The notes under the pieces: model-generated | What the model was told of the DNA's origin: nothing | Databases searched by the model: none | What the model saw: the letters and a program-made list of their open reading frames with translations, nothing else | Part shown: piece after piece, positions 43,793-60,600 of the stretch | How the letters are laid out: each line of letters begins with the position of its first letter | Numbering within the stretch: the stretch's first letter is position 1 | Assembly: GCA_913057685.1 (NCBI GenBank) | Contig: CAJXOA010000007.1 | Coordinates: 3,123-67,122 of the forward strand | Direction: 5' to 3' | Length of the DNA stretch: 64,000 nt | From: an uncultured Trueperaceae bacterium | GTDB taxonomy: Bacteria; Deinococcota; Deinococci; Deinococcales; Trueperaceae | Program-made: the position numbers and the translations under genes

Positions 43793-43801
43793 GCGGCAGG
43801 G

Positions 43802-45043
43802 TTACACGCTGCGCGGTCCGCCGACCAGGTTCCGCATCGTGAAGGCGCGCGCCAGCAGCGCCGCGCTCGGCCCGCGGAGCGCCGCCGCGAGCGCCGCGTC
43901 GCGCACCCCCGCCGCGCGGGTGGGGCGCCCCAAACGCAGGTTGGCCTCCGCCCGGAGGCGGGCGCGGCGCGCGCGGGCGCCCTGGCGCCGCGCGTACGTG
44001 CGCATCGCATCGGCCCGCGTCGCGCGACCCTCGCGGTGCGCGCGCCACGCGTCGACGAGCTCGTCGGCGCCCAACCAGCCCAGCGTCATGCCCTGCCCCC
44101 CGAGCGGCGGCACGACGTGGGCGGCGTCCCCCGCCAACCAGGTGCGGCCGCGCGCCATGGGCGTCGCGCGGCGCGCCTCCACCCCGAACGACGAACGCAT
44201 CGTCGCCGCGCCGGGATCGAGGACGACCCCCATCCGGCCGGCGACGAGGCGCGCCAGGTGCACCGGGTCGGCCTCGGCGGGGACCGGCGTGCGCACCACC
44301 CAGCGGCGCACCCCGCCCGGGAGGGGGAACGCCTCGACGACGCCGGCGGGCGCCAGGTGGATCCACGCCTCGTCGGCCGCCAGCGGCCCCAGGGCGGCGG
44401 GCCACGCCTCCGCCGCCTGCGGCAGGTCGATCATCAGGTAGGCGTCGTCGAACGACCGCCCGGCGCGGCGGCCGGCGACCCAGCGTTCCGCCCCGCCGCG
44501 CGCGCCGGTGCAGGCGATCACGTCGCGGGCGCGGACCTCGAGCGTCCCCCCACCCCGCGCGTCGGTCGCCTCGAGGGTCACGCCGGCGGCGTCCTCGCGG
44601 CGGCCGCGCACCGTCACGCCCCGCCGCACCGCGCCGGGGGCGAGCGCCTCGAGGCGGTCCAGGAGCACCCCCTCGGTGACGTGCTGCGGTGCGGTCAGCA
44701 CGAACGGCCACGGGTCGGGCAGGTGCGCGCCGAAGGCGATCGTGCCGAGGCGGCGCAGGTCGCGGCCCGGCGTGCCGGCGCCGCCGTGCCCCCGCCGGAC
44801 CGGGACGCCCGCCGCGACGAGGGGGTCGGCCGCCCCGACCCGCGCGAGCGCCTCGAGGCCCGGCGGGTGGAGGCCGATGGCGCGGGTGTGGGTCGGGGGG
44901 TCCAGGCGACGCTCGAGCACGACGACCGACGCGCCCAGCGACGCGAGGCGGGCGGCGAGGTAGCTGCCGGTCGCGCCCGCCCCCACGATCGCGACGTCGA
45001 CGTCCGCGGGCTCGCGGACGGCCCGCACATTCGGTGGCGTCAT
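43802..45043 (-). CDS. FAD-dependent aromatic monooxygenase/hydroxylase
   Basis: 413 aa. GxGxxG VAIVGAGATGSYLA and the DG...GDAAH motif WLAGDAAHVVPPLGGQGMTLG. ATGA overlap with the methyltransferase stop. Confidence 0.85.
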   Translation of the reverse strand: MTPPNVRAVREPADVDVAIVGAGATGSYLAARLASLGASVVVLERRLDPPTHTRAIGLHPPGLEALARVGAADPLVAAGVPVRRGHGGAGTPGRDLRRLGTIAFGAHLPDPWPFVLTAPQHVTEGVLLDRLEALAPGAVRRGVTVRGRREDAAGVTLEATDARGGGTLEVRARDVIACTGARGGAERWVAGRRAGRSFDDAYLMIDLPQAAEAWPAALGPLAADEAWIHLAPAGVVEAFPLPGGVRRWVVRTPVPAEADPVHLARLVAGRMGVVLDPGAATMRSSFGVEARRATPMARGRTWLAGDAAHVVPPLGGQGMTLGWLGADELVDAWRAHREGRATRADAMRTYARRQGARARRARLRAEANLRLGRPTRAAGVRDAALAAALRGPSAALLARAFTMRNLVGGPRSV

Positions 45044-45771
45044 GGGGCCTCCGTCTCCCGCAGGACCCGAAGGCGGAAGGCGCCGCGGCGCCGCACGTGC
45101 GCGCCGGGCGGGAGGTGCGGCGCGAGCTCCGGGGGGCGCCACGCCCGCCGGATCGACCGCATCCCGTCGACCCGCACGAACGACCCGCGGAACGGCAGCG
45201 AGAACACCGCGAACGCCGGGAGGGCGAACGGCGTGCGGATCAGGTCGTCGTGGAGGACCGCCCGCGCCGCCAGCGCGTCGGTGGCCGCCAGGAACGGCGC
45301 CAGGTCCGCCTCCGCCAGGTGGTGCAGGACGTGGTTCGACACGACCAGGTCGAAGCGGCGGCCGGCGGCCCGGAGGTCGCCGACGTCCTCGCCCGGGCCG
45401 TCCCCGACGTACGTCACGCCGGTGGGGGTCGGGCGCGTCCGGGCGAACGCCAGGGCGCGGGGGTCGCGGTCGAGCGCCGTCACCTGCAGCGGCACGCCGT
45501 CGTCCGCCGCCCAGCGCGCGAGGCGGCGGGCGAGGTCCCCACCGCCGCACCCGACGTCCAGGAGCGTCGCGCGCCCCGACGCCTCGGCTGCGGCGCGGGC
45601 GTGCGGGCGCAGCACCGTCCGCCACGCCGCCCGCCAGCCGGACAGGAGGTCGTTGAGGAGCCCGAACTGCGCGAACGTCGCCGCGAGCCGTTCGGGGTCG
45701 CACGCCGGGTCGTCCATCCGCTCGCGCAGGTCGTGCGCGCGGGGGAACCGGTCGACGGGGCCACCGTTCAC
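45040..45771 (-). CDS. class I SAM-dependent methyltransferase
   Basis: 243 aa. Motif I LLDVGCGGGDL. GTGA overlap with the type III PKS stop. Confidence 0.8.
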   Translation of the reverse strand: MNGGPVDRFPRAHDLRERMDDPACDPERLAATFAQFGLLNDLLSGWRAAWRTVLRPHARAAAEASGRATLLDVGCGGGDLARRLARWAADDGVPLQVTALDRDPRALAFARTRPTPTGVTYVGDGPGEDVGDLRAAGRRFDLVVSNHVLHHLAEADLAPFLAATDALAARAVLHDDLIRTPFALPAFAVFSLPFRGSFVRVDGMRSIRRAWRPPELAPHLPPGAHVRRRGAFRLRVLRETEAP

Positions 45772-46934
45772 GCGAAGGTCAGGAGCCCGCTGGCGACCGT
45801 CAGGCCGGGCCCGAACGCCATGGCGATCACCGGTTCGCCGGGCGGCCCCGGCGCGCGCAACAGGTCGGCCAGGACGAACATCACCGTCGCGCTCGACATG
45901 TTGCCGTAGCGCGCCAGCACCCCGCGGGAGGCGGCCAGCGCGCCGTCGGGGAGGTCCAGGCCCACCTCCAGCTTGTCGAGGATCGCCCGCCCGCCGGGGT
46001 GGACCGCCCAGCGGGGTACGTCGGCGAGGTCGACGTCGCGGCCGGCGAGGAGCGGACCGAGGGCGTGGTGCGCCTTCGCCCCGACGATCTTCGGGACGTA
46101 CGCGCTCAACGTCATCTCGAACCCGGTGTCGCCGATCGTCCACGCCATGTCGTCGGCGCCCTCGGGCGCCAGGCCGTCGGCGAACGCGTCGAGGCGCAAC
46201 GCCGGACCGGTCGGCGTCCGGCCGGAGACGACGGCGCCGACGGCGCCGTCGGCGAACACGCTGGCGGACACCAACGCGTCGGGGTCGCGGTCGTGCTGGA
46301 GGTGGAGGGTGCACAGTTCCGCCCAGGCGATCAGCACGACCGCGTCCGGGTCGGCCTCGACGAAGGCGCGCGCCATGCGGAGGGCGGGGAACGCCGCGTA
46401 GCACCCCATGAAGCCCAGGTGGTAGCGCTCGGTGCCGCCGCGCAGGCCGAGGCCGTGCACGACGTCGAGGTCGGGGCCGGGGGCGTAGAACCCGGTGCAG
46501 GACACCGTGACGACGTGCGTCACGTCGTCGGGGCCAACGTCGGGCGCCGCCTCGAGCGCGTCGCGCGCTGCGGTCACGAACAGCGGCCCGGCCTCGCTGC
46601 GGTAGCGGGCGTTGCGCTCCTTCGTGCCGGGGTCGCGGACGTCGCCGGCGTCGGTGACGAAGAACCCTGGGCCCGACTGGGTTGGGGGAAGCCGACGGAC
46701 GCCATGGGCGTCGCACCCTTCATCCGCGGGTGGGGTCGTCTCGCCGCCGCGGGGGACGAAGTCCTCGAGCACGCTGTGGCGCGTGTCGATCCCGCTGGAG
46801 GGGTAGATCCGCCGCAGCAGCTTGTCGGTCCGCCGGTCGCCGCCGACGATGCCCTCCATCGCCGCTTGGGCGCTTCCCTGGTCGACGGTGGGGGCGGGCA
46901 CGACGGGCGCGATGGAGTGCAGGTACGCAGGCAC
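45768..46934 (-). CDS. type III polyketide synthase (alkylresorcinol/alkylpyrone synthase-like)
   Basis: Catalytic Cys in VTVSCTGFYAPGPD, His in WAVHPGGRAILD and Asn in YGNMSSATVMFVL. The start is uncertain: GTG at 46934 (VPAYLHSIAPVVP) is preferred, and ATG at 47021 is possible. Confidence 0.88.
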   Translation of the reverse strand: MPAYLHSIAPVVPAPTVDQGSAQAAMEGIVGGDRRTDKLLRRIYPSSGIDTRHSVLEDFVPRGGETTPPADEGCDAHGVRRLPPTQSGPGFFVTDAGDVRDPGTKERNARYRSEAGPLFVTAARDALEAAPDVGPDDVTHVVTVSCTGFYAPGPDLDVVHGLGLRGGTERYHLGFMGCYAAFPALRMARAFVEADPDAVVLIAWAELCTLHLQHDRDPDALVSASVFADGAVGAVVSGRTPTGPALRLDAFADGLAPEGADDMAWTIGDTGFEMTLSAYVPKIVGAKAHHALGPLLAGRDVDLADVPRWAVHPGGRAILDKLEVGLDLPDGALAASRGVLARYGNMSSATVMFVLADLLRAPGPPGEPVIAMAFGPGLTVASGLLTFA

Positions 46935-47035
46935 GTGCGTAGCATAGGCCAGGGGGCCCCTCGCGTCCGAGGGCCGCGACGCAGTCGGACGGTGCGTCCG
47001 CACCACGTAACGTAAAGGCATAGTACGGTGCAACC

Positions 47036-48184
47036 ATGACGAGCGAATGGCACATCGACACGACACCGTTCGGAACCACGGGGCGTGGCGAGCCCGTGAC
47101 GCGGTTCGACCTCGTGGCGCCCGACGGGTCCGGCGTCGCGCTGCTCGATTACGGCGCGACGGTCCTCGAAGTCCGGGTGCCCGACCGCGCGGGCGGCCTG
47201 CGGAACGTCGCCCTCGGGCATCGCGACCTCGGGGCGTACGAGACGAATCCGGAGTACCTCGGCGTGACCGTGGGGCGGACGGCGGGGCGACGCCCCGCCA
47301 CGCCGGTCGACGTCGGGGGGACGACGGTGCACCTCCCGGCGAACGAGGGGGACGGCGTGCACCTGCACGGTGGGCCGGTCGGGTTCCACCGGCGCCTCTG
47401 GAACGCCGAGGTACGCCGGGAGCCGGGGCAGGACGGTCTCGCGGAGGTCACCTTCGCGCGGGTGAGCGACGACGGGGAGGACGGCTACCCCGGGCGGCTC
47501 GAGGTGCGCGTGCACGTCGCCTGGACCGAACGCCACGAACTGCGGATCCGGACCGAGGGGGCGTCCGACCGCACGACCCTGTTCGCACCGACCCACCACG
47601 GCACCTGGAACCTCGAGGGTGCCGGCGCCGGGCCGGCGACGGAGCACGAGCTCAGCGTCGACGCCGACGCCTACCTCGCCCTCGATGACCTGGGCGTCGC
47701 GACCGGCGAGGTGCGTCCGGTCCGCGGTACGCCGCTCGACCTGCGCGACGGGACGCCCGTCGCCACGCTCGTGCCCGGCGACGGGCCACTGCGGGGGCGC
47801 CGCCTCGACGTCGCGGCGACCGGCGACGGCGAAGCGCACGCCGCGGCGGAGTTCCTGCGCCGCACCCACGGCCTCGACGCCGCCTTCGTGCTGCCCCCGA
47901 CGGAGTCGGGGGTCCTCCGCCCCGTCGCGACGTTGCACGCGCCGCGCAGCGGCATCACGATGACCGTGATCACCGACGAGCCGGCCCTGCAGGCCTACAC
48001 CGGGTCGTTCCTCGGGCGGGACGTCCCCGGCACGCACGGAACGCCGCACGTTCCCTACGGCGGCGTCGCCCTCGAACCGCAACGCTTCCCCGGGCCGGCG
48101 TTCCACGACCATCCGTTCGGGGCGGTGCTGGTGCATGGGGAGGGGTATCGGTCGGAGAACGTGTTTCGTTTCGGGAAGGATTGA
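47036..48184 (+). CDS. aldose 1-epimerase (galactose mutarotase family)
   Basis: 382 aa. Motifs VGRTAGR, HLHGG..GF and GYPG.LEV.V.W, plus the C-terminal ALEPQRFP pattern. Confidence 0.8.
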   Translation: MTSEWHIDTTPFGTTGRGEPVTRFDLVAPDGSGVALLDYGATVLEVRVPDRAGGLRNVALGHRDLGAYETNPEYLGVTVGRTAGRRPATPVDVGGTTVHLPANEGDGVHLHGGPVGFHRRLWNAEVRREPGQDGLAEVTFARVSDDGEDGYPGRLEVRVHVAWTERHELRIRTEGASDRTTLFAPTHHGTWNLEGAGAGPATEHELSVDADAYLALDDLGVATGEVRPVRGTPLDLRDGTPVATLVPGDGPLRGRRLDVAATGDGEAHAAAEFLRRTHGLDAAFVLPPTESGVLRPVATLHAPRSGITMTVITDEPALQAYTGSFLGRDVPGTHGTPHVPYGGVALEPQRFPGPAFHDHPFGAVLVHGEGYRSENVFRFGKD

Positions 48185-49030
48185 TCCTGCGGCGGACGTA
48201 GCACGAGCCGTCCGTTGTGCGTGCGGAGCGTTGATTCCAGGTGTGACGGGACGAGACTGAAGCATGCGTGGCGCGGTGATGCCTCGTGTCCTTCCGTGTT
48301 GCGTCACGTTAATGAGTGTCATGTAGCGATACGGCTGCGTTCGAGCCGAAGCATGTCTTCGTTTCTGTCGTATTGCGCCCGAAATGCAGCAGATGCGGCT
48401 AGCGTAGACGAAAACGTGCATCCCACGGGCTTTCAAGGGCGCGGTTCGGGAGTCGTTTTGAGTGCTCGAGTGCCATGTGGGCAATGTCGGAGGTGCGCGA
48501 GTGACGGCATCTACCCACGCCGTACCGTCCCGCGAGACCGTCCACTGGATCTTTGGCCTAGGACAGGTCCTTCGAGGCAAGGCGCCTGACAACGTCGTCC
48601 ACGGCTGGGTTTGACTCGGTGAAGGCAAGGGCTTGAACGCAAGCGTAGCTCGGTATTCGTCGCTCGAGCTCCCGAGCGACAGGCGAATGCCTTTCAGGGG
48701 CGTACGTGTGCACGGTGGACAGGCGCCGTCAGTCACGCTTTGCCTTGAATTCATCGGCGATCACCGATCCATGTCCGTACGTGCCCGGTTCCGAAATCTA
48801 ATGTGCTCCCCATTTGGTTGGGGGTCATGCCTACGGGGCGACCATCTCTACTTCCCCTACTTCACTCAACCGACGCTGTCCCCTCGCATAGTGCGCTGGA
48901 AAGTACGCCGTAGCCCCAAGCAAAAAGTGAAGATTATGGAAAAAATAACGTAGGAATAACACCCTACGAATAGTCTTCTCTCCGCAAGGCGCGCATTCGC
49001 CCGAGCGCCTTATGCACGAAGGGAGTTCGT
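48185..49030. other. 846-bp apparently non-coding, lower-GC spacer at the left edge of the low-GC block
   Basis: The only ORFs are short, Cys/Arg-rich and implausible (48215..48589, 48633..48953). An AT-rich patch lies at about 48935-48975. GGGAG lies 7 nt upstream of the ATG at 49031. Confidence 0.6.
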
Positions 49031-49702
49031 ATGACCATGGCTCGAGGAGTCCTTGCCGCGGCAATCATGTTTGCAGGCATGGGAGTCGCGCAGGACACCA
49101 CCAGCGCGACCGACACACAAACGGTGCAGGACATCAGTTTCGTCGTCGGCAACCGAATTGACGTTCAGATGAGCAGCGGTGCAAGCGCCACGGCTGCGCT
49201 GTCGATCAACTCGGCGGATACGTCCGTCATCGATGACGAAACGATCGACATCGACTACGTGTTTGGTTCGCTTGATGGCGGTATTACGGCTGAAGTGACC
49301 AACTTCAATTTGGACAACACCGATTATACGCCAGGTACGGCCGAAGGCGTGACGCCTGAGGATGCGGGGTTGGGGACGTCGGTTCCCGATCCGGATAATG
49401 AGATGTTTTCGTTGACCAATGGGATTCGCCTTGCTCTATGCATGGGCACGGCGGATCAGTACACAACAACTGCATGTGATCCGCTGGCTGACCCAGGAAT
49501 TGGGTGGAAAAAAGTAAACGTGATGCAAGCGCAACAAGGCGTCTTTGGAGCCGCGACTCTCATGACTGACAACGATGCCGGGGTGGCACAGGAGGGTGAG
49601 GAGCTTTCATTGAAGTTTGCGGCATCGAAGCTCAACCGTGGCCCCGAGCAGGCGATTGAAGATCTCGACCTGACGGTCACCTTCACGGTAGCGGATTACT
49701 AA
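49031..49702 (+). CDS. secreted acidic protein, putative fibre/surface subunit 1
   Basis: 223 aa. Sec signal MTMARGVLAAAIMFAGMGVAQ. Thr/Asp-rich with two Cys. C-terminal strand LTVTFTVADY. Atypical codon usage. Confidence 0.75.
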   Translation: MTMARGVLAAAIMFAGMGVAQDTTSATDTQTVQDISFVVGNRIDVQMSSGASATAALSINSADTSVIDDETIDIDYVFGSLDGGITAEVTNFNLDNTDYTPGTAEGVTPEDAGLGTSVPDPDNEMFSLTNGIRLALCMGTADQYTTTACDPLADPGIGWKKVNVMQAQQGVFGAATLMTDNDAGVAQEGEELSLKFAASKLNRGPEQAIEDLDLTVTFTVADY

Positions 49703-49797
49703 TGGCCGGAGTCATGCAGTGGACTGCGCTGTGGCGTGGCGCGCCCCTCGAAGGCGCCTACACACTAGTCGATCGCGTGAAGAAAGGATTTCGAGTG

Positions 49798-50478
49798 ATG
49801 AGAAGGCGTGGAATCGGTTCGCTTTTCGCAGTGACGATGGTCATGGTGGGCCTCGGAACGACCTTGGCTCAAAGCATCCAAACTCCGAGTAGTGCACAGG
49901 ACGACGTCGTCTCCGCCAGCGACGACGTCACCCTGTCGCTGACATACAGTTTCGTAAACTTCGTCAACGCCGGTGGAGACGTGACCGAACAACTTAGCAT
50001 CGCCGGAGCGGACACCTTCGATAGTGCGCCCGGCGGAACTGTGGAGTATTCCTTTGCTAACGCGACCACACACCTCTATGCCGAAATCGTAAGCGTCAAC
50101 GGGGTTACGCCGACGGATGAGTTGGCGGATTGGTACCAAGATGCGGAAAACCACCTTGAGTTCGGAATCGCCAATGGCGACGTATCCGACCGCTCCGACT
50201 TCAACGGCACGTCGGGGTCCGGCGAAGCTGCTCGGCTTTTCCCCGGAGATGGTAGCGATCAGCCCGTCAAGGCGCTGCTCGATGGTTCTGGAATGTACGT
50301 TGCCGGTAGTCTCAACGACCGGCTCCACGGCACGGACGGGGGAGGGGCCAACTCGTTCGAGTACTCGTACTACATCGCCCAACGTGGGGACGGACCGGAA
50401 ATGGGTTTCGGCGACACAAGCCCAGAGACGACGAACGGTGATTCGGTCACGATCCAGTTCACGGTAGCCTCAGAATAA
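49798..50478 (+). CDS. secreted acidic protein, putative fibre/surface subunit 2 (distant paralog of subunit 1)
   Basis: 226 aa counted from the ATG at 49798, which has GAAAGGA about 10 nt upstream. Signal MRRRGIGSLFAVTMVMVGLGTTLAQ. C-terminal strand VTIQFTVASE matches that of subunit 1. Confidence 0.75.
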   Translation: MRRRGIGSLFAVTMVMVGLGTTLAQSIQTPSSAQDDVVSASDDVTLSLTYSFVNFVNAGGDVTEQLSIAGADTFDSAPGGTVEYSFANATTHLYAEIVSVNGVTPTDELADWYQDAENHLEFGIANGDVSDRSDFNGTSGSGEAARLFPGDGSDQPVKALLDGSGMYVAGSLNDRLHGTDGGGANSFEYSYYIAQRGDGPEMGFGDTSPETTNGDSVTIQFTVASE

Positions 50479-50485
50479 GGCCAGA

Positions 50486-51388
50486 GTGATTCTGGTTCGA
50501 TCCTCTGGACATATCGGCCTGAACGGCTTCCGCGCGCTTGGCCCCACCCTGGAAGGGTGGGGCCGGCCAAGACTCTTGATGCTGCTGGCGTCGTGTGTGA
50601 CGTTCACTGGGTTTCTTGCTTCGGGGCTTGCGATGGCAAACATCGGCATCCTCGAGTCCTTGACGGCGACCATCGACATGATGCCCGGTGAAACGGCCAC
50701 ACGCACCATTACGGTGTTTAACAATGGCGATTCGCCGCAACGCGTACGCGTGCGTCTTCTCGATCGCATACCTGGTGGGGATCCAGAGTACGTTGAACCG
50801 GGTTCCATCACCACATCGGCGTCGCAGATGGTGCGACCTGAGGTGGATGAGTTCATCGTTGCGGACGGCGAGAATCGACGCTTTTCGTTTACGGTCACGG
50901 CGCCACCCGACGTAGACGAACCGGCGACCTATTGGACCGTACTGATGTTCGAACCAGAAGGTGAGCTCGAGGAAGACGTACCGCCCGCCGAGGGTATCCA
51001 AATCCGGACACGCACGCGGTATGCGTACTCGGTGCTGGTGCACGTCGGAGCCCCCGACGTTTCTGGCATTACGATTGGCGACGTCGCGCGCGGTGACGCA
51101 AGCGGTATGGACCGTGACGCCCTGCTCATCGATGCAACACTTCAGGTCGAAGGGCAACGCGTGGCACTCGTCCGCGTCCAAGCACAGGTATTCGATCGTG
51201 CGGTGGGCGACCAAATCTTCTCAACGCCTCCCGCAACGGTACGCCTCTATCCAGGATACGAACGCGAGGTTCGATTCGATCTTTCGGACGTGCCTCCAGG
51301 GGCATACGAAGTTCTCCTCCTCGCAGAAACGGAAAATTCGGACATGTACGCCGTGCGACTGGACTTGGACGTGGGCGGAGAACCCTGA
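50486..51388 (+). CDS. secreted two-beta-sandwich protein, chaperone-like / DUF916-DUF3324-like
   Basis: The hydrophobic signal LLMLLASCVTFTGFLASGLAMA suggests the ATG at 50579 as an alternative start. The strings MMPGETATRTITVFNNGDSPQRVRVRL, RRFSFTVTAPPD and PPGAYEVLLLAE are Ig-like strand patterns. There is no C-terminal TM helix. Confidence 0.7.
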   Translation: MILVRSSGHIGLNGFRALGPTLEGWGRPRLLMLLASCVTFTGFLASGLAMANIGILESLTATIDMMPGETATRTITVFNNGDSPQRVRVRLLDRIPGGDPEYVEPGSITTSASQMVRPEVDEFIVADGENRRFSFTVTAPPDVDEPATYWTVLMFEPEGELEEDVPPAEGIQIRTRTRYAYSVLVHVGAPDVSGITIGDVARGDASGMDRDALLIDATLQVEGQRVALVRVQAQVFDRAVGDQIFSTPPATVRLYPGYEREVRFDLSDVPPGAYEVLLLAETENSDMYAVRLDLDVGGEP

Positions 51389-51450
51389 TGAGGTCGGTGT
51401 TGGCGCGAGACGGGTAGGCCGTCGCGACGCCCACGCTGCGTGGTCCTGCC

Positions 51451-54270
51451 ATGCTCCACCGGCTCATTCTCCCTCTCTTCTTCGCTTGCCTCAGCGGTAC
51501 GGCTGCGTACACGCAGACCGTTGAAGTCCCCGCCAAGCTACCCACGGTCGCGCCGGGCGAAAGCGCGATTCTTCGCGCCGTCCTCGTGCAGCCGCGGGGC
51601 GAGGCCGACACGTATGCCTTGGCGTACGAACGGCCCGAGTTCGTGCGGCTCATTGCTCCACGCGCCGAAATCGACGTAGCCGCAGGAGACCAACGGGCCG
51701 TCGTTCTGCCAATCGACGTGAGCATCAATGCACCGCCTGGACCCGCGGCGGTCGCTGTGACCGCCACGAGCGGCGCTTCAGCTCCAATGCGCTTCGCGGT
51801 TCCATTCATCGTCATGGAACGCATCGCTGGATCTATCGAGGTGATTACCACCCCGCGAAATGCGGTGCGTGGCCCGTACGAGCTGGTAGCGCGCGTCGTC
51901 AACGAGGGAAACGTCCGGGCGCAATTCGCGCTGGGAGGGTCTGCTGTTTTGGAGATCGGGCGAACCGTTGAGCCGTCGGTCCTCGAACTCGGTCCCGGCG
52001 AAGATGGCCAGGTGACGGTCCGCGTCGCTCCCGAGCTTCCCGAGGACACGATCCGGACCGATCGAACGTGGCTCGTCCTGCGGGACGCTACGTCCGGTCG
52101 CCGATTGGACGCTACACGAGTTCCCGTCGACGTCCTACCCAGCTTTGGCCGGCGTGGTCGCGCTGGTCCATTCCACACGATTCCACTCACGGTTCGTACG
52201 GCCGTGAGGACGGGCATCGAGACGGCCGAAGGGACGTGGGTCGTGACCGGCAGTGGCACCCCGACATTGACCACGCAGATTGCGGGCGCATTACTCGATT
52301 CTGGACAGCCACGGGTCCATCTGTCACTTCGTACGCCAATACGGAGGGATCGTGCACCTCGGTTCCAAGCCCGATATCAAGGGGTCGTTGACATTGCCAT
52401 GCAGCTTCCGGGCGCCACGCGTATTGCGCCCCGCACCACCCCCATCTCGGGACTTGGCGGGAGGGTCGATATCCCCATACGTCAAAACGTTCATCGGGCG
52501 AACCGTTTGTCGGTATCACTCCATCAGAATGCGGACGGCGCACATGGCGGGGTTGGGGTTCGGCTTCGCGATGAGTGGGCAAGTACGTCTTGGGCGACAC
52601 ATGTCGGAACGACCGTGCATCCGTCGCATCGATCGTTCGGTGGCACTTTCGGCTTGAGCATTTCGAGTCGCTCGGACGTGCTTATCAGCGGTAGTTTCGG
52701 GCGCCGGTTCGGCCCCATCCTTCCCCGTGCTCAGGGCACGGTGTCCTTTTCCGTCGATGGCGTGAGTGGAAGCCTTCAAGCGCGACGGGTGTGGTCGATC
52801 GATGATGATGACGACGGGGATGGGTTTGCGAGGGTCCGAAGGCAAAGCTACGAGTATCGCCCGCCAACACGACGCTACGAAGGTCGTTGGCTCTCTGGGC
52901 GTGTATCCGGCAGCGTGGCGTACGAGCATACCGTCCGTAAACGGGCCGACGAACCGGTGTCGGCAGCGGAATCTTGGGACGGTGATCTGGATGTTTCTGG
53001 GGAGGCGTGGACCCTTAGGACGGATGCAAGAAGGTCGACCCGCCTGCCGCTCGACGCTACACAGGCCGTGCGTCATGCCGACGCATATCGTGCCCGCGTG
53101 CGGTTGTCTCGGGTGTGGGGGATAGTTGACGTGGGAGCAATCCACAGTCGCACGCTGGAGGCGGGCGTCGTTACGAAACGGAGTGCCGACGTCAGCACGG
53201 GTGTGCGGAATGTCGAGATGGGTGACTTTTCTACGGCGCTGTCCGCGAAGTACCGCACCAATCTGCCCGTCGAGGCCTGCCGCCCAAACTGCGATCCGGG
53301 CCGGAAGGTTCGTATCGAAGGATCCGTCCAGGCGTACGGGGGAACCGCCCGCTTCTCGCTCGAGCCGATCGGCCATACCGGATTGTCATTGGACGTCGGC
53401 TACGGGTACGCGACGACGGTACGGCCGTTCGGGCTGATTCCGATCGACGTGTCCATCGCGGGCGGCGACCGCTGGCTCGACACCGTATCGGCCGACGTAC
53501 GCGGGACGTTCGGATCCAGGTTCGGGCGGCTCGACCTCTCGGGTGGCGTGCGGCACGAGCGGAACGGGACGTCCTCCACGACGTTCACGGCGCGTGCCGG
53601 GTGGTCGTACCGGATCGACGTCCCCGTCTCGTACCGCTCCGACCTCGGGCGGCTCGAGGGCCGCGTCCTCGGTCCCGACGGATCGCCGTTCCCGGACGCC
53701 GTCGTCCGCGTCGACGAACGCGAGTTCGTCACCGACGAGGAGGGACGGTTCACGAGCGACGTCCTCCCCGTCGGGCCCGCGACCGTGTTCGTGGACACCA
53801 CCCGCGTCCCATCGGGGATGCTCGTCGCCCCCAATCCCGTCCAGGACGTCGTCCTCGAGTCGGGGGAAGCGGTCGAGGTCACGTTCCAGCTCGTCGAGGC
53901 GACCGGGGTTCGGGGGCGGATCGCCTACGAGGACCCCCCGACGGACGTCGGCGACGACGTCGTGTTCGGGACCGGCCGTCGCGACGTCGACCCGCTCGTC
54001 GTCGGGGAGCGAACGATCGTGGTCCGCAACGACGAGCGGTCCTACCGAACGAAGAGCAACCCCGATGGCACCTTCGAACTGGACCGCATGTACCCCGGGA
54101 CGTATCGCGTGGAGGTGGTCGAGGACCCCGCCCTCGAGTTCTTCCGGATCGAACCGGCGGTCGTCACCGTCGACGTCGAGGGTCCCGAGCCGGCGTCGGT
54201 GGACCTTCGCATCGTGCCGGAGCGCCGGACCGTCGAGGTGGAGGAGCGCCCCGGGCTGTCCTTCCCGTGA
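51451..54270 (+). CDS. 939-aa secreted/outer-membrane protein: two N-terminal Ig-like domains, a central beta-barrel-like region, and two C-terminal carboxypeptidase-regulatory-like domains
   Basis: Signal or lipobox-like MLHRLILPLFFAC. N-terminal strings APGESAILRAVLV and LGPGEDGQVTVRVAP. The central about 450 aa are R/S/G/T/Y-rich alternating strands with no hydrophobic helices. C-terminal strings GRVLGPDGSPFPDAVVRVDEREFVTDEEGRFTSDVLPVG and RTKSNPDGTFELDRMYPGTYRVEV. Confidence 0.75.
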   Translation: MLHRLILPLFFACLSGTAAYTQTVEVPAKLPTVAPGESAILRAVLVQPRGEADTYALAYERPEFVRLIAPRAEIDVAAGDQRAVVLPIDVSINAPPGPAAVAVTATSGASAPMRFAVPFIVMERIAGSIEVITTPRNAVRGPYELVARVVNEGNVRAQFALGGSAVLEIGRTVEPSVLELGPGEDGQVTVRVAPELPEDTIRTDRTWLVLRDATSGRRLDATRVPVDVLPSFGRRGRAGPFHTIPLTVRTAVRTGIETAEGTWVVTGSGTPTLTTQIAGALLDSGQPRVHLSLRTPIRRDRAPRFQARYQGVVDIAMQLPGATRIAPRTTPISGLGGRVDIPIRQNVHRANRLSVSLHQNADGAHGGVGVRLRDEWASTSWATHVGTTVHPSHRSFGGTFGLSISSRSDVLISGSFGRRFGPILPRAQGTVSFSVDGVSGSLQARRVWSIDDDDDGDGFARVRRQSYEYRPPTRRYEGRWLSGRVSGSVAYEHTVRKRADEPVSAAESWDGDLDVSGEAWTLRTDARRSTRLPLDATQAVRHADAYRARVRLSRVWGIVDVGAIHSRTLEAGVVTKRSADVSTGVRNVEMGDFSTALSAKYRTNLPVEACRPNCDPGRKVRIEGSVQAYGGTARFSLEPIGHTGLSLDVGYGYATTVRPFGLIPIDVSIAGGDRWLDTVSADVRGTFGSRFGRLDLSGGVRHERNGTSSTTFTARAGWSYRIDVPVSYRSDLGRLEGRVLGPDGSPFPDAVVRVDEREFVTDEEGRFTSDVLPVGPATVFVDTTRVPSGMLVAPNPVQDVVLESGEAVEVTFQLVEATGVRGRIAYEDPPTDVGDDVVFGTGRRDVDPLVVGERTIVVRNDERSYRTKSNPDGTFELDRMYPGTYRVEVVEDPALEFFRIEPAVVTVDVEGPEPASVDLRIVPERRTVEVEERPGLSFP

Positions 54271-54313
54271 GCATCGGCGCACGACCCCGAGCCTCGGCGC
54301 ACGCCCAAAAGCC

Positions 54314-57040
54314 TCAGCGGACGGCGTCCGGGCGGGGTAGGTGGGTGGCGACGAGGCGACCGACCCGGTCCGCGAGGTTCGTCCGCTCGTCGGCCAACAG
54401 GGCGTCACGGAGGCCGGTGAGGGCCGAGCGGAGGACCCCCAGGCCGTGGGGCGTGCCGTACCGGGTGAGGGTGGCCTCGAGCTTCGACATCGTTTCGCTG
54501 AGCTCCGGGATGGCCCCGCGCGCTAGGCACGCCCGGGCGTGCCCGAGGTGGGCGCTGGCCTCGCCGATCGCGTCGCCCGCCTCGTGGAACGCCGCCGCAG
54601 CGCGCGCGTACGCTGCGCAGGCGCCCGCGTCGTCGCGGGTTTCACTCAGGATGTGCCCGCGGTTCGTCTCGCAGGCCGCCACCAGCCACGGGTCCCCCGC
54701 GTGGCGGGCGTGCCGCGCCGCCTCCTCCAGGTCCTCGAGGGCGTCGGCGGGGGCGCCCCGCGCGCCATCGGCGGCGGCGAGGTTCATCAGGGCCCGCGCC
54801 ACGCCGGGTTCGTCGTCCGCCTCCCGGCGGGCCGCCAGGGCGGCGGCGAAGTCGTGGCGCGCGTCGCCCGGCCGGCCGGCGTCCATCGCCAACCCCCCGA
54901 GCGCGGTGGCGACCCCCGCGCGTTCGGGGGTCGGGAGGGCGTGCGCGTGCGCGTCGGCGGTGGCGCGGAGGAACCGCTCGGCGAACGGGCCCTGCCCCAG
55001 GCGTTCGTACACCCGCCAGGTGCGGGCGCCCAACGCCAGGGCGGCCCGTGGGTCGACCGCGATGTGCTCGCGCAGGAGGGCGTTCGCGTCGTCGATCCAC
55101 GTCACGGCGTCGGCGAGCGCCTCCGCCTCGCCCGGCCCCTGGAGGGCGTCGGCGACGCGGGTCAGGCGGTCGAAGACGTCGTCGCGGTAGCGCCGCGCGA
55201 AGGCGGCGTCGGCCTCGTCCTGTCGGTCGACGTCCGCCCGAAGCGCCGCGCGGAGTCCGGCGGGCACCCGGTAGGTCGCCGGCCGACCCGCGCCCCCCGA
55301 CCGCGTCACGAGACCGAGGGCCTCGAGGCGGGCGAGGTCGGCCGCGACGGCGTCCGCGTCGCGCGCCTCGGCGTGCGCGAGGACGCCAGGGGGCGCGGGA
55401 ACGCCGACGTACGCCAGCCGCCGCAGGAACGGCGCCAGGTCGCGGGGAACCGCGGCGGCGGCGGCGCGCCCGTGCGCGAGGAGGGACCGCTGGTGCGGGG
55501 GCAGGTCGGGGGCGCCGGCGGTCAGGCGCCCGGCGAGGTCGGGCAGGGTGGTGAACGGGTCGCCCAACGTCCCGCGCGCCCAGGCGTACCCGGCCAACAC
55601 CAGCGACAGCGGGTGGCCCTGCAGGATGCGCGCGGTCAGCGCGACGCTCGTGCGGACCTTCGGATCGAGGTCGGCGGGGGATCCGGTCCACCCGTGCTTC
55701 CGGGCCGACGCCAGGAACAGTTCGGTGGCGGGGGCGTCGGTCATGCGCTCCGGGTCGCGGACGTCGAGGTCGGGAAGCCCCAACGGTCCCGGCGTCCAGG
55801 TGCGTTCGTACGCGTGGCCGATGGGCGCTCGCCCGGTCGCGACGAAGCGGACGCCGGGGTGGCGGGCGGTGAGGGCCTCCGCGGCGTCGGGCGTCACGCG
55901 GCCCGGGGGCAGGTCGTCGAGCCACACGAACGTCGGGGCGTGCCAACCGGCCGGGGCGAGGGCCGTATCGACGGCGCGGGCGACGGCGTCGCCGTGCGGC
56001 GCGTCGCGCACCACGAGGCGCGTCACCCGCTCGCCGGTCCGGGCGACGTGCAGGCGGAGCGCTTCGGAGGCGAGGGTGGAGGTCCCGAGCCCCGGTCCGG
56101 CGGCGAGGGTCAACCACGGTACGCCGGGGTCGGCGAGGCGGTCGAGGACCGCCAGCACGTCCGCTTCGCGACCGATCAGGCCGAACGGGGTGGCCAGCCG
56201 CTCGTCCCCCACCGCGTCGGGCGCGACCGCGCTCGCCGCGGGACGGTGGGCGCCGTCCGCCAACCAGCGGCGGCGGACGTCGTGGAGGAGTTCGACGGTG
56301 GCGTGCGAGGGGTCGGCGTCCAGGTGGCGGCGGAGGGCGTCCTCCGCGTCGAGGTAGCGGCGGACGGCGTCGGTGGGGCGGCCCGCGTCCCGCCGGAGGC
56401 GGATCGCCGTGCGGTGGGTCGCCTCGTCCCACGGCGCGATGCGGCTGGCGACGTCGGCGAGGTGGATGGCGTCGTCGGCGCTGCCGTCGGCTTCGGCGTC
56501 GGCGGCGGCGCGCGTCCAGGCGTCGTGCAGCTCGTACGCCAGGTGGGTGCGCGCGTCGGCGAGCCAGTCCATGAAGGCGGGGGCGTCGGTGAGGTCGATG
56601 CCTTCGAGGAGGGCGCGGGTGGGATCGAGGTCGGTCGGTGCGTCGTCGTAGCGGGCGCCCGCCGCCCCCCACCCTCGAAGACGGAGGACGTCGGCGTCGA
56701 CCGCGTCCCCGTCGAGGCGGACGTGCGTGCGGTCGCTGACCAGGACCTCCCCCAGCGCCCGCCGGAGGGTCGTGAGCGTCACGCGCAGGTTCGTGCGGGC
56801 CTTGGGGGCGTCGTTGTCGGGCCACAGCAACGTCGCGAGGTGGGTGCGGCTCGCCCCCTCCGGCGTCGTCAGGAGGTAGCCGAGGGCCGCCCAGTGCTTG
56901 CGTTGCCGGAGGCCGGCGGAGCCGTGCGCGGCGGTGAGGTGCGGCGGCCCGAGCACCCGGACCGACGGGACCGGTGCCGGGACGCCCGCGTCCGCCGACC
57001 GGGGACCGAAGGTGCCGTCGAGGGAACCGGAGGACCGCAT
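54314..57040 (-). CDS. AfsR/SARP-like regulator: winged-helix DNA-binding domain + BTAD + NB-ARC-like domain + TPR
   Basis: 908 aa counted from the ATG at 57040. Motifs RKHWAALGYLL and LWPD...ARTNLRVTLTTLRRAL, plus the BTAD helices. The P-loop-like GPGLGTSTLA lacks Lys. The C-terminal half has Ala-rich TPR-like repeats. Confidence 0.75.
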   Translation of the reverse strand: MRSSGSLDGTFGPRSADAGVPAPVPSVRVLGPPHLTAAHGSAGLRQRKHWAALGYLLTTPEGASRTHLATLLWPDNDAPKARTNLRVTLTTLRRALGEVLVSDRTHVRLDGDAVDADVLRLRGWGAAGARYDDAPTDLDPTRALLEGIDLTDAPAFMDWLADARTHLAYELHDAWTRAAADAEADGSADDAIHLADVASRIAPWDEATHRTAIRLRRDAGRPTDAVRRYLDAEDALRRHLDADPSHATVELLHDVRRRWLADGAHRPAASAVAPDAVGDERLATPFGLIGREADVLAVLDRLADPGVPWLTLAAGPGLGTSTLASEALRLHVARTGERVTRLVVRDAPHGDAVARAVDTALAPAGWHAPTFVWLDDLPPGRVTPDAAEALTARHPGVRFVATGRAPIGHAYERTWTPGPLGLPDLDVRDPERMTDAPATELFLASARKHGWTGSPADLDPKVRTSVALTARILQGHPLSLVLAGYAWARGTLGDPFTTLPDLAGRLTAGAPDLPPHQRSLLAHGRAAAAAVPRDLAPFLRRLAYVGVPAPPGVLAHAEARDADAVAADLARLEALGLVTRSGGAGRPATYRVPAGLRAALRADVDRQDEADAAFARRYRDDVFDRLTRVADALQGPGEAEALADAVTWIDDANALLREHIAVDPRAALALGARTWRVYERLGQGPFAERFLRATADAHAHALPTPERAGVATALGGLAMDAGRPGDARHDFAAALAARREADDEPGVARALMNLAAADGARGAPADALEDLEEAARHARHAGDPWLVAACETNRGHILSETRDDAGACAAYARAAAAFHEAGDAIGEASAHLGHARACLARGAIPELSETMSKLEATLTRYGTPHGLGVLRSALTGLRDALLADERTNLADRVGRLVATHLPRPDAVR

Positions 57041-57181
57041 CGCTCCAAACCGTAACGGATGAAACGCCGAAGTACGGCGAACCAGACGACAGTGTGGCGC
57101 GGACCGCACCGTACGAGGGGCGTCCTGGACGCGCCGCGCTCTCACGAACCGGGGTGGGCGTTTCGGTATCCTCGAAGGTCC

Positions 57182-57649
57182 ATGCCCACCGGTACCGACC
57201 GCACCGGCACGATCGCCTCCGCCCGCCCCCCGCGCCGGGGCGCGCGCGTCGTGCGCACCGTCGCGATCGCCGTCCTCGGAGCGACCGCCTGGGCCGCCCC
57301 CCCGTGCGAGGCGCTGCTCGAGGGCTTCCTGGTGCGGGACGCCGTCATCGAACGCCCCTGCCTGGTGGACCTCCAAGAGCGCGGCGTGTGCTTCGCCCTG
57401 GAGGGCACGACGTTGGAGTCGTCGGTGCGCCAGTTCGACGCCTACCTGCAGACCACCGGCATCGCGCGGCCCACCTGGGCGTCGCACGAGGGCACCCACG
57501 CCACCCGGGTCGTGGCGCCCCCCGGCGACCGGGTGGAGCTCGTGCTCGCCGAGGACGGACCGTTCGCGACGCTCGGGTCGTGCCGGCTCGCGCCGGCGCG
57601 CGGGGCGCCCGGCGCGGAGCACGACGACCTCGACGACGGCGCCCCCTGA
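57182..57649 (+). CDS. small exported hypothetical protein with four Cys
   Basis: 155 aa. PRRGARVVRTVAIAVLGATAWA looks like a Tat/Sec signal. No recognisable family. Confidence 0.5.
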   Translation: MPTGTDRTGTIASARPPRRGARVVRTVAIAVLGATAWAAPPCEALLEGFLVRDAVIERPCLVDLQERGVCFALEGTTLESSVRQFDAYLQTTGIARPTWASHEGTHATRVVAPPGDRVELVLAEDGPFATLGSCRLAPARGAPGAEHDDLDDGAP

Positions 57650-57671
57650 CCGCGCGCCCCGACGGGGCGCC

Positions 57672-60600
57672 CTAGCCGCCGTAGGCGTAGCCGCGCGCGG
57701 CGACCGGCGCGTCGAGCCCCGCGACGGTGCGGGCGCGCACCGTCCAGGCGCGCCCCTCCCGCCGCAAGATGCCGTCGACGACCAGCACCTGCGCGTCGCG
57801 CAGCACCCGCCACTGCGCGTCCCACAGCTCGGGGGCGATGACGACCTGGGCGCGGTCGGGGCCGTCCTCGATGACGAAGAAGGCGTAGCCCTTGGCGGTC
57901 CCCGGGCGTTGCCGCGCGACGACCCACCCACCGGTCCGCACCTCCCCCTCCTTCGCCGCGGCGAGCGGCGTGACGCCCAGGTCGCGCAGCTCGCCGCGCA
58001 GCAGGTCGACGGGGTGCACCCCCGCCTCCTCGAACCCCTTGAGGCGGTAGTCCCACACGACGCGCTCCGCGTCGTCGAGGGCGGCGAGCGGCGGGGTGGG
58101 GGGCGTCGGGTCGAACAGCGGCGCCTGCCCGGGGGGGACGGTGTGGTGCAGGGCGCGCGCCTGGTAGAGCGCCTCGCGGCGCGCCTGCAGACCGTCGAAG
58201 GCGCCGGCGCGGGCGAGCGCCTCGAGGGCGTCGCTCGGAATGCGGGCGCGCTGGTGGAGGTCGCGCAGGTCGGCGTACGCTCCGCCCCGCGCCCGCTCGA
58301 GGACGACCTCGCGGGCGACGGCGTCGGAGACGCCCGTCGTCGCCTGGAGGGGTGGGACGAGGGTGCCCTCCGGCCCGCCGGGGTCGACCCGCCAACCGGC
58401 GCCGGACCGGTTGACGTCGAGCGGGGCGACCTCCACCCGCCAGCGGCGGGCCTCCTGCCGCAGGGTGGAGCGCGGCCACATGCCGGGGTGTTCGTTCAGG
58501 ACCGCCGCGAGGTACGGCCCCGGGTGGTGGTGCCGCAGCCAGGCGCTCGTGTAGGCGTGCAGCCCGAACGCCCAGGCGTGCGACTCCGCGAAGCCGTACC
58601 CGCGGAACGCCGCCATCGCCTCGAAGATCGCCTGCGCCTCCGCCTCGCTGCAGCCCGCGTGCCGCATCGCCCCGTCGACGAACGCGCGGTACGGCCCGCG
58701 GATCTCGTGTTCGTCCTCGAACGTCGTCACCGCCTTGCGGAAGCGTTCCGCGTCGGTCCAGGACATGCCGGCGACGGCGACGGCGATGCGCATCAGGTCC
58801 TCCTGGAACAGGATCACGCCGTACGACTTGCGCAGGACCGGCTCGAGGGCGGGGTGCAGGTAGGTGACCGGCTCCCGCCCGTTGCGGCGCGCGACGTACG
58901 GGTGGACGGTGTGCGACTGGATGGGGCCGGGCCGGAAGAGCGCCACCTGGTGCGCGAGGTCGGTGAGGGTGCGCGGCTTCAGTTGCACGCTCATGCGCAC
59001 CTGGCCGGGCGACTCGATCTGGAACAGCCCCATCGTGTCGCCCGCCTGGATGCGTTCCCAGACCGCCTCCTCGAGCGGCGGGTCGCGCACGTCGACCCAC
59101 GTCCCGGTGAGGCGGTGGACCTCCTCGCGGGCGCGTTCGAAGACGCTCAGCATCCGGAGGCCCAACAGGTCGAGCTTGATGAGGCCGAGCGCCTCGACGT
59201 CGTCCTTGTCGAACTGCAGGAGCTTGATGCCGCCGCTCGAGCGTTCGAGGGGGCTGACGTGCGCGAGGGGCGCGCGGCTGAGGACCACCCCACCGGAGTG
59301 CGGCGCGACGTGCCGCACGAACTTCGCCTCCATGCTCACCAGGAGGCGCACGAGTTGGGCGCGGAGCGGGGTGTCGCCCAGCACCTCGTCGAACACCTCG
59401 TCCGCCTCGCGCGCCTGGTGGGGGCGCAGGTGCCGGTACGGCCGCCCGAGCGCCTTCGTGAGGCGGTCGCGAACCTCGGGCGGGATGCCGAGCGCCCGCC
59501 CGAGGTCCTGCACGGCGCTGGGCAGGTGGTAGGTGATGCGGTTGCAGACCATCGCTTCGGTGCGCGCCCCGAAGCGCCGTTCGACCCAGGCGAGCAGCTC
59601 GTCGCGGCGGGCGGAGGCGACGTCGACGTCGATGTCGGGGGGCGACGCCTTGCCGCCGTGCAGGAACCGCTCGAACAGCAGGTCGTGCTCGAGCGGGTCG
59701 GCCTGCGTGATGCCGAGCAGGTGACACACCAGGCTGGCGGCGGCGGAGCCGCGGCCGCTGCAGACGATGCCGCGGTCGTGGCAGTAGTCGGTGATCTCCG
59801 CGGCGGCGAGGAAGAAGCCGGCGAAGCCGAGCGCGCGGATCGTCGCGAGTTCGTGGTCGAGGCGCTCGCGGGCGGTGGGGAGGCGGTCGCCGGCGTAGCG
59901 CTCGACGAGCGCGCCGTACGTCCGTCGTTCCAGGTAGGCGTCCGGCGTGAGGCCGTCGGGGACGTACGCGTCGGGGGGCTCGAGGCGGTCGGGCAGCAGC
60001 GGCCAGGTGCACGCCTCGGCCAGCGTGCGGGTGTTCGCCAGCACGTCGGGCAGCAGCAACGCCGGCACCTCCCCGTCGGGCACGCGGTCGCGCAGGTCGG
60101 GTGGGGGGAGGGCGTCGGCGTCGTTCCGGGGTCGGTCGGGGTGCGGGTCGTCGACGGTGATCCCGAGCCGGGCACAGGTGAGCGCGTCGTACAGCGGGTA
60201 CGACGCCGCGTCGGCGTAGCGCACCTCGGGGGCGGCGACGGCGGGGAGGCGGGCGCGGTGCGCGAGGCGGCGCAGGTAGCGCCCGCGGCGCAGGTCGGCG
60301 GGGTGGGCGCCGTGGTAGAGCTGCACCCAGAAGCGGTCGGGGAAGAGGGCGGTGAGGCGCTCGAGGAGACGGTCGAGGTCGGCGAAGCGGCGGCGCACGA
60401 GGAGGGTGGTCGGGAAGCCGGCCCGCCCGCCGGACAGGGCGTGCAGGTCGGTGGTGTGCGCCTCGAGGATCGGGAGGGTGACCTCGCCGCCGCGTTCGTG
60501 CGCCAACGTCAGGAGTTCGTTCAGCGTGGCGTAGCCGCGCCGCGACCCGGCGAGGAGGGGGAGGGGGTGGACGTCGTCGCCGTCGCGCAGCGCGACGGTC

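Follow-up and report, generated by a model that had tools for sequence, protein, structure and literature searches.

A low-GC island in a Trueperaceae bacterium may encode a chaperone-usher-like assembly system with a WxLIP-type periplasmic partner

A low-GC island of four co-directional open reading frames (ORFs; positions 49031-54270, + strand, in the order genes 1, 2, 3 and 4) lies in DNA from an uncultured Trueperaceae bacterium of the Deinococcota. The window that we analysed, in which all positions are counted, is a stretch of 64,000 nucleotides (positions 3,123 to 67,122 of contig CAJXOA010000007.1, assembly GCA_913057685.1). We think it somewhat likelier right than wrong that a diderm Deinococcota host uses this island to export and assemble a surface fibre or complex by means of a three-component, chaperone-usher-like system. 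Genes 1 and 2 would provide paralogous secreted subunits, gene 3 a periplasmic partner related to the WxL-interacting proteins (WxLIPs) of Firmicutes, and gene 4 a large outer-membrane protein with the domain order of an usher. What looks new is a chaperone-usher-like logic built from a WxLIP-lineage partner together with usher-like and subunit families that are orphans by sequence. The first-pass annotation, made from the nucleotide sequence alone, knew of no description of such a system, and we likewise found none in the openly accessible full-text literature. No assignment to an unrelated characterised family came out of any profile or fold search.

Gene products and proposed assembly

Gene 4 (51451-54270, + strand) encodes a 939-residue protein that is predicted, from an AlphaFold2 model and Foldseek searches, to be an usher-like outer-membrane protein. 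The model was built from 16 sequences, is all-beta, and has a mean predicted local distance difference test score (pLDDT) of 81. DSSP strand assignments and homologue matches place two N-terminal immunoglobulin (Ig)-like domains of the NEW3/CARDB type at residues 23-230 (51517-52140, +). They are followed by a central beta-barrel region at residues 241-728 (52171-53634, +), which has about 30 long antiparallel strands of 7-22 residues, and by two CarboxypepD_reg/transthyretin-like beta-sandwiches at residues 732-927 (53644-54231, +). The barrel strands are amphipathic, being hydrophobic on one face and polar on the other, and are joined alternately by turns of 2-4 residues and loops of 6-13 residues, which is the pattern of outer-membrane barrels; short strands at residues 262-323 could form a plug-like insert. 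Pfam recognizes the first C-terminal sandwich clearly (CarboxypepD_reg, PF13620, residues 735-814, E 1.3e-13) and the second more weakly, and NPCBM_assoc, FixG_C and Ig_VWA7 matches in gene 4 homologues fall at positions aligned to the N-terminal domains. All full-length relatives examined share this plan, with two NEW3/CARDB-like Ig domains, ~450 unannotated residues and two CarboxypepD_reg/SdrD_B sandwiches. The arrangement of Ig pair, barrel and two sandwiches had been read from the translation beforehand and is borne out by the model and Pfam. A lipobox had also been suggested for the N-terminus, and this part did not hold: the N-terminal cysteine is not conserved in homologues, a lipobox is therefore unlikely, and gene 4 was rejected as a lipoprotein.

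When the gene 4 model was compared with PDB structures using Foldseek, all 11 of the best matches were FimD or PapC ushers (E 1.9e-16 to 2.7e-10, over about 800 columns). The model also reproduces the usher domain order of an N-terminal sandwich, a large barrel and two C-terminal sandwiches. These whole-protein matches, together with the order of the genes, support the parallel with chaperone-usher operons that the first-pass annotation had drawn, and the central region that it took for an outer-membrane barrel is indeed predicted to be a large one. At the sequence level the relationship disappears: Usher (PF00577) has no match in gene 4 at E<=1, a 16-sequence gene 4 profile retrieved no FimD or PapC among PDB sequences at E<=10, and the barrel region found only weak PDB sequence matches, to VDAC barrels.

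A large outer-membrane barrel could also serve uptake or transport. In such a reading gene 4 would be a channel like SusC and other TonB-dependent receptors, or like LptD, and the products of genes 1-3 would be its periplasmic or surface substrate-binding partners. It finds support in the CarboxypepD_reg domains, which SusC-like receptors typically carry, and in the isolated barrel, whose matches to LptD, FemA, BauA and BtuB are about as good as its match to the PapC pore (E about 1e-6 to 1e-7). We nevertheless consider this reading very improbable. A Pfam scan of gene 4 found neither Plug nor TonB_dep_Rec, no TonB box is present, and the CarboxypepD_reg domains are C-terminal rather than N-terminal. 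With the whole model, LptD and TonB-dependent receptors (about 5e-7) trail the full-length ushers by nine orders of magnitude, and the partner proteins resemble pilins and a WxLIP, not SusD or binding proteins.

Gene 3 (50486-51388, + strand) is a 300-residue ORF that starts at a GTG at 50486 or, in the 269-residue form called in ENA, at an ATG at 50579. Its product has a signal sequence followed by two beta-sandwich halves, one DUF916-like and one DUF3324-like. Hydropathy analysis gave no sign of a membrane anchor, the highest 19-residue value after the signal peptide being 1.2, and the protein ends in …LDLDVGGEP. It is thus predicted to be a soluble periplasmic protein with two Ig-like domains, as PapD-like chaperones are, and the signal peptide, the two Ig-like halves and the missing anchor noted at first reading are all confirmed by the hydropathy profile and the two-domain WxLIP alignment.

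The resemblance of gene 3 to DUF916/DUF3324 proteins, proposed in the first-pass annotation, also proved correct. An alignment of the gene 3 family matched seven Firmicute WxLIPs in hhalign with a probability of 98.1% (E 1.1e-13), over 225 columns covering both DUF916 and DUF3324. Among PDB sequences, EfmWxLIP1 (9i25_C, 9i1y_A) was the top match to a 7-sequence gene 3 profile (E 3.6e-5) and the sole significant match to the 10-sequence profile (E 2.6e-6). Several family members have sub-threshold matches to Pfam WxLIP_PGBD (PF06030/DUF916) that cover nearly the whole model, with single-sequence scores of up to 15.7 bits against a gathering score of 27.3. By profile comparison, then, gene 3 is a remote, full-length WxLIP relative, not a Pfam-level member of the family. 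PapD_N (PF00345) and PapD_C (PF02753) had no match in seven gene 3-family members at E<=10, and the gene 3 profiles retrieved no PapD, FimC or Caf1M from the PDB, so that the canonical usher and PapD signatures that could not be seen by eye are absent from the Pfam results as well. A relationship to AbpX was considered and rejected, since its match (E 0.12) to the narrower gene 3 profile was gone with the wider one.

AlphaFold2 models of WxLIP-WxL complexes have a WxLIP hairpin turning into a strand that completes the WxL beta-sandwich in parallel, and the commonest type of WxL cluster combines one WxLIP gene with two WxL genes (PMC10599100). The island has the same count, with two subunit genes and one WxLIP-like gene. 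By analogy, the parallel strand geometry of WxLIP-WxL complexes is that of donor-strand complementation between a chaperone and its subunit. Insertion of a strand by the chaperone is established for PapD-pilin complexes.

Gene 1 (49031-49702, + strand) encodes secreted acidic subunit A, with 223 residues and a signal peptide that ends at about residue 21 (…GVAQ, with D as the first mature residue). Subunit B is encoded by gene 2 (49702-50478, + strand), a 258-residue ORF whose likely start, favoured by signal-peptide geometry, is the ATG at 49798; this gives a 226-residue protein (MRRRGIGSLF…TLAQ, with S as the first mature residue). The description of both as acidic secreted proteins of about 225 residues with signal peptides ending in AQ is therefore accurate: both begin with a hydrophobic signal sequence ending AQ, beyond which hydropathy analysis detects no hydrophobic segment, and the mature isoelectric point is about 4.05. 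A phage tail-tube match to gene 1 and a TMEM127 match to gene 2 were far below threshold and were discarded.

A plain pairwise BLASTP comparison of genes 1 and 2 is marginal (E 0.043). The two families align over their full length in hhalign (98.6%, E 1.1e-15, 201 columns), as expected of the related proteins that had been proposed, and on this sequence evidence genes 1 and 2 are paralogues. Three features are conserved in a set of 19 subunits, namely an N-terminal strand that directly follows signal-peptide cleavage (S-x-S-D-T-Q-T-V-x-I-x-F/Y), a G-x-G-P turn and a C-terminal strand ([IV]-T-[IV]-x-[FY]-T-[VI]); genes 1 and 2 both carry the N-terminal S-x-S-D-x-x-T-V/L and the C-terminal V-T-I-x-F-T-V strands. 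No 9-mer of the subunit family is better conserved than the C-terminal strand, already singled out as shared by the two genes in the first-pass annotation. Pfam searches over the 19 subunits matched no family: WxL had no match at E<=10, Fimbrial, SCPU, DUF4402 and Peptidase_M73/TasA were likewise absent, and subunit profiles had no match among PDB sequences.

An AlphaFold2 model of mature gene 1, built from a 12-sequence alignment (pLDDT 73.7, predicted template modelling score 0.70), gives the subunits a structural context. Among the top Foldseek matches to this model, 33 of 39 are donor-strand fibre subunits, including CS17/CfaB/CooA, TasA, the Sulfolobus 0406 thread, FimG/FimA/PapA/PapE, Caf1, Csu, CupE and the CanA cannulae, and the remaining six, CfaE tip adhesins or PapGII pilin domains, belong to those same fibres. 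Residues 1-17 of the mature protein are among its best-conserved segments, yet they are unplaced in the monomer model (pLDDT <50). Judged from the modelled fold, the subunits look like donor-strand fibre subunits.

Several of these fold matches belong to fibres that assemble without a chaperone. The subunits might self-assemble extracellularly into a matrix fibre such as TasA, archaeal threads or cannulae form, with genes 3 and 4 having unrelated envelope roles. The TasA fibre, the Sulfolobus 0406 thread and the CanA cannulae among the gene 1 fold matches agree with this idea, as does the marginal AbpX match of the narrower gene 3 profile (E 0.12). Of the readings considered here it is nonetheless the least probable. 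Every locus examined has its gene 3-like and gene 4-like genes linked to subunit genes, a diderm would require an outer-membrane exit route, and the AbpX match is lost with the wider profile. The locus also has no SipW-type signal peptidase, the subunits have no Peptidase_M73/TasA Pfam match, and the sole TasA/camelysin link is an NCBIfam match of gene 3 to BsaA of 12.7 bits.

The first-pass annotation had compared the subunits with WxL domains, a likeness that we could not substantiate. Pfam WxL (PF13731) did not match, and hhalign comparison of the subunits with six small WxL proteins from Firmicute plasmids aligned only the last 10 columns (probability 1%, E 0.055). In this short segment the subunit T-F/Y-T-V aligns with the WxL T-W-x-L, F or Y standing in place of W. 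By these sequence comparisons, the subunits are not demonstrably WxL domains.

We hypothesize that the four proteins, whose export signals were read by eye from their signal sequences, work together as follows. Sec would export all four. In the periplasm gene 3, a soluble and anchor-less WxLIP homologue, would capture the paralogous subunits by inserting a strand into the incomplete beta-sandwich of each and would hold them in this state. A candidate for the inserted strand is the conserved gene 3 segment I-R-T-R-T-R-Y-A-Y-x-V-x-V-H-V. Gene 4 would form a large outer-membrane barrel whose Ig domains and C-terminal sandwiches lie on the periplasmic side, where these domains would dock gene 3-subunit complexes, and the subunits would pass through the pore. 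At the pore, the N-terminal strand of the incoming subunit (S-x-S-D-T-Q-T-V-x-I-x-F) would displace the gene 3 strand, at an exchange site adjoining the conserved C-terminal strand (V-T-I-x-F-T-V) of the preceding subunit, and the product would be a heteropolymeric or tip-plus-shaft fibre. We thus infer a strand-donating periplasmic chaperone in gene 3, an outer-membrane assembly or export pore in gene 4, and a subunit N-terminal strand that performs donor-strand exchange to give a fibre.

Several observations count against such a fibre system. First, sequence models of ushers, PapD chaperones, fimbrial proteins, SCPU and WxL detect none of the four proteins. Second, the template modelling (TM) scores of gene 4 to ushers are low (0.25-0.34), and the isolated PapC pore (2vqi, E 3e-7) does no better than LptD and TonB-dependent receptors; the usher-specific signal therefore lies in the order of the flanking sandwich domains, not in the barrel. 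Third, the gene 1 fold matches are weak (E 1.8e-3 to 0.1, TM 0.37-0.48) and come from a moderately confident model. Fourth, the WxL clusters of Firmicutes are believed to make surface complexes that do not polymerise, and homology of gene 3 to WxLIPs therefore does not imply a fibre. Finally, both strand donation and polymerisation are inferred.

The main rival takes up this fourth point and describes a surface complex that does not polymerise and would be to diderms what the WxL/Csc cell-surface complex is to Firmicutes. In it, gene 4 would export the subunits, and perhaps gene 3, and would hold them on its Ig and sandwich domains, resulting in a fixed heteromeric adhesin or substrate-binding complex. 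Such a complex would suit a gene 3 that is a WxLIP homologue, the presence of two subunits and one WxLIP as in the commonest WxL cluster, and pilin fold matches that are statistically weak. The subunits add a single WxL-like feature, their C-terminal strand motif (T-F/Y-T-V against T-W-x-L). Three features speak for polymerisation instead: the conserved N-terminal strand finds no place in the monomer model, as is typical of donor-strand subunits that polymerise by themselves; related loci resemble pilus operons in having 3-5 subunit paralogues; and the top subunit fold matches are fibre subunits, not WxL chains. Taking these together, we regard a non-polymeric complex as rather unlikely and continue to favour a chaperone-usher-like system.

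Distribution and synteny

To understand how widely this gene set is shared, we consider where its relatives occur. Co-occurrence of the four-gene set in other genomes, on which the proposal of a system depended, is seen in about 10 distinct loci whose genomes differ greatly, where an adjoining pair of gene 3-like and gene 4-like genes has 1-5 small secreted subunit genes nearby. The count comprises distinct loci with upstream sequence (the window/L025, L004, L005, L006/L007, L008, L009, L014, L015, L016 and L017), and the linkage of the three gene types holds in every one of them. The exception to strict pairing is L017, in which one small gene separates the gene 3-like and gene 4-like genes. 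Protein lengths in gene order are 222, 216, 303 and 937 residues in L004; 273, 243, 289 and 968 in L005; 211, 206, 197, 225, 285 and 950 in L006; 165, 178, 275 and 895 in L008; 169, 309 and 913 in L009; 176, 184, 176, 62, 211, 274 and 977 in L014; and 153+ (incomplete at the contig edge), 271 and 855 in L015. The arrangement in L016 is cut by a contig edge. The number of subunit paralogues varies, with four in L006 (211, 206, 197 and 225 residues), proteins of 176, 184, 176 and 211 residues in L014, and four to five across L006/L007 and L014. In L014 an extra 276-residue protein with two NEW3 domains directly follows the usher-like gene.

Two relatives of gene 3 are 61% identical (L001, from a Trueperaceae metagenome-assembled genome, MAG) and 42% identical (L002, an ENA contig), and both lie downstream of two gene 1/gene 2-like genes. 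The family is small: when gene 4 residues 1-735 were compared exhaustively with 1.84 billion representatives by HMMER, no more than 19 proteins reached E<=1e-3. A word-indexed search with gene 4 alone returned no relative besides gene 4 itself, and one with the gene 4 family alignment returned mostly CarboxypepD_reg repeat proteins. A profile search of genome contigs with a 3-sequence gene 3 alignment had no match, and a metagenome scan found only the L002 organism again. The homologous clusters lie on contigs of 30-68% GC, which argues that the genes are real and that the module is old and widely dispersed, although rare.

A cultured carrier came to light when plasmids were searched with gene 3 by tblastn, which located a cluster on the 375-kb megaplasmid of Deinococcus sp. 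NW-56 (L017, NZ_CP026517.1 305357-323788, genes C3K08_RS15405-RS18840, all annotated as hypothetical); the gene 4 barrel region, searched in the same way, had no match. This cluster encodes, in order, a 292-residue protein ending …TLTYTLT…, a 298-residue gene 3 homologue, a 190-residue protein ending …MTFTALALP and a 1013-residue gene 4 homologue. The 298-residue protein matches the gene 3 family at 99.1% and the 1013-residue protein matches the gene 4 family at 99.5%. The NW-56 cluster is a diverged version of the cluster in the window.

Genomic setting and candidate control

The abrupt change in composition noted at first reading is clear from windowed counts. In 500-nt windows GC is 0.57-0.66 over 48000-53500 and 0.73-0.81 on either side, and GC at third codon positions (GC3) is 0.64, 0.68, 0.64 and 0.74 in genes 1 to 4, against 0.90-0.97 in the flanking genes for aldose epimerase, type III polyketide synthase, a BTAD regulator and DnaE2. 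An ENA metagenome contig (L025, ERZ27241910 k141_265954) is 99.35% identical to window positions 48018-58072 and spans both island junctions, and the island is therefore not a binning chimera. The same metagenome, ERZ27241910, also yielded a second, different cluster (L007). The low-GC island is horizontally acquired; tRNA genes, an integrase gene and flanking direct repeats were looked for at its borders and none was found. An Rfam scan of island and leader gave no match at E<=1, and neither an LPXTG ORF nor a signal peptidase gene is among the island ORFs.

The flanks encode an aldose 1-epimerase, a type III polyketide synthase, a BTAD/TPR regulator, DnaE2 and a V/A-type ATPase. The nearest relative of the V/A-ATPase subunit in the window, at 68% identity, is in a Trueperaceae MAG from a salt flat, which makes the earlier guess of a Deinococcota-like host a reasonable one. 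The mature products of genes 1-3 are very acidic (isoelectric points 4.0-4.2), and the records of two related loci, L003 (PR_CR_10_Liq, Cabo Rojo) and L027 (a Salar de Ascotan MAG), point to saltern and salt-flat samples. This acidity and these record names suggest halophilic communities as the setting of both the system and its host.

Upstream of gene 1 the island begins with a low-GC non-coding leader (48185-49030, + strand, GC 0.584), in which promoter- and terminator-like sites are not above chance. The leader contains a candidate operator, the direct repeat TAAC-N7-TAAC with an 11-bp period (48946-48960, +), about 70 nt 5' of the gene 1 ATG. The repeat occurs once in the 64-kb window, where 0.02 occurrences are expected by chance, and lies inside the hairpin CGTAGG-AATAACAC-CCTACG. 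Three further distinct clusters have the repeat on the coding strand, 5' of their first subunit gene: L001 (459-473), L002/L005 (839-853 in L002, 170-184 in L005) and L006 (358-372). The operon may be controlled through this motif. SARP-type BTAD regulators bind direct repeats at a spacing of one helical turn.

A BTAD/TPR (SARP/AfsR-like) regulator gene is convergent with gene 4 (54314-57040, possibly to 57931, - strand; Pfam BTAD E 1.6e-8, TPR_12), and its GC3 is host-like at 0.90. The NW-56 cluster, too, is flanked by regulator-type genes (L017 5152-7359, -, and 15487-15966, +), which encode a BTAD-annotated regulator fragment and a large protein that appears by eye to have a winged helix-turn-helix-like region and has no Pfam match. 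A specific link between this large protein and the BTAD regulator of the window was rejected, as the two are not close homologues. The association of the BTAD/TPR regulator with the operon is uncertain.

Two further groups of neighbouring genes were noted on the - strand. A type III polyketide synthase gene (45768-47066) lies near a UbiA-family prenyltransferase gene (42890-43792), and an ORF with a motif like those of S-adenosylmethionine-dependent methyltransferases is found around 45040-45770. The region 42890-47066 could be an alkylresorcinol- or alkylquinone-type lipid operon beside the island. Beyond the regulator, the gene for the DnaE2-type error-prone polymerase (57672-60821) is followed by a 495-residue ORF (61127-62614) with no Pfam match at 1e-5, which may encode an imuB-like partner in a mutagenesis cassette.

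Comparison with known systems

The current definition of chaperone-usher pili rests on the Usher and PapD sequence families, and the pili fall into classical, alternative and archaic clades. The island resembles these systems (classical Fim/Pap, alternative CFA/I-CS17 and archaic Csu/CupE) in combining secreted subunit paralogues with a two-Ig periplasmic protein and a large outer-membrane protein. Gene 4 has the modelled domain order of an usher, with sandwich(es), a barrel region of roughly 490 residues and two C-terminal sandwiches, and FimD and PapC as best fold matches; the modelled subunit has chaperone-usher pilins as best matches and conserved N- and C-terminal strands. Unlike these systems, the island proteins have no detectable sequence relation to the Usher, PapD_N/C, Fimbrial or SCPU families, and the putative chaperone is of the WxLIP (DUF916/DUF3324) lineage, not of the PapD lineage. 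Additionally, gene 4 carries two NEW3/CARDB-type N-terminal and CarboxypepD_reg-type C-terminal domains, and the subunits are larger (about 200 residues when mature) and very acidic.

The WxL/Csc clusters of Firmicutes comprise small and large WxL proteins, a WxLIP (DUF916, DUF3324 and a transmembrane helix) and a small LPXTG protein. Shared with them are a gene 3 that is a full-length remote WxLIP homologue, two subunit genes per WxLIP-like gene, and a subunit C-terminal T-[FY]-T-[VL] that resembles the distal T-W-x-L motif. Strand insertion from WxLIP to WxL, predicted in the literature (PMC10599100), is what we propose for gene 3. Unlike the Firmicute loci, which have no barrel gene, the island belongs to a diderm and includes one for the outer membrane; gene 3 lacks the C-terminal transmembrane helix, an LPXTG gene is absent, and the subunits have no W-x-L motifs, Pfam WxL match or significant similarity to small-WxL profiles.

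TasA, archaeal threads, bundling pili and cannulae are likewise built from beta-sandwich subunits with a terminal donor strand, and several of them are among the gene 1 fold matches. These chaperone-free fibres need no periplasmic partner or outer-membrane pore, whereas genes for both are strictly linked to the subunit genes here. SusC/TonB-dependent receptors and LptD are comparable as large outer-membrane barrels with fold similarity to gene 4 (E about 1e-6 to 1e-7), and SusC-like receptors also carry CarboxypepD_reg domains. Gene 4 differs from them in lacking Plug and TonB_dep_Rec, in having its sandwiches at the C-terminus and in its partner genes.

The three-part logic and the usher domain order are thus met here in proteins that Usher and PapD models do not detect, with a chaperone candidate homologous to WxLIPs. 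Rather tentatively, and with somewhat less than an even chance of being right, we suggest that the scattered loci represent a new class of donor-strand fibre machines. Their chaperone would share an ancestor with Firmicute WxLIPs, and their usher would be either an extremely diverged FimD/PapC relative or an independent invention of the same architecture. The family is unannotated at present, and profiles made from these loci would annotate recurrent hypothetical proteins. If confirmed, the system would extend the repertoire of donor-strand assembly to Deinococcota and halophilic communities, and it would be open to experiment because the cultured Deinococcus sp. NW-56 carries a related megaplasmid cluster. 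The poorly understood WxL/WxLIP clusters of enterococci, listeriae and lactobacilli would then gain a mechanistic analogue in which the WxLIP acts as a strand-donating chaperone. If the tentative suggestion of a new class is right, the cell-surface complexes of monoderm WxL systems and the chaperone-usher-type assembly of diderms would be two expressions of a single ancient module for strand complementation.

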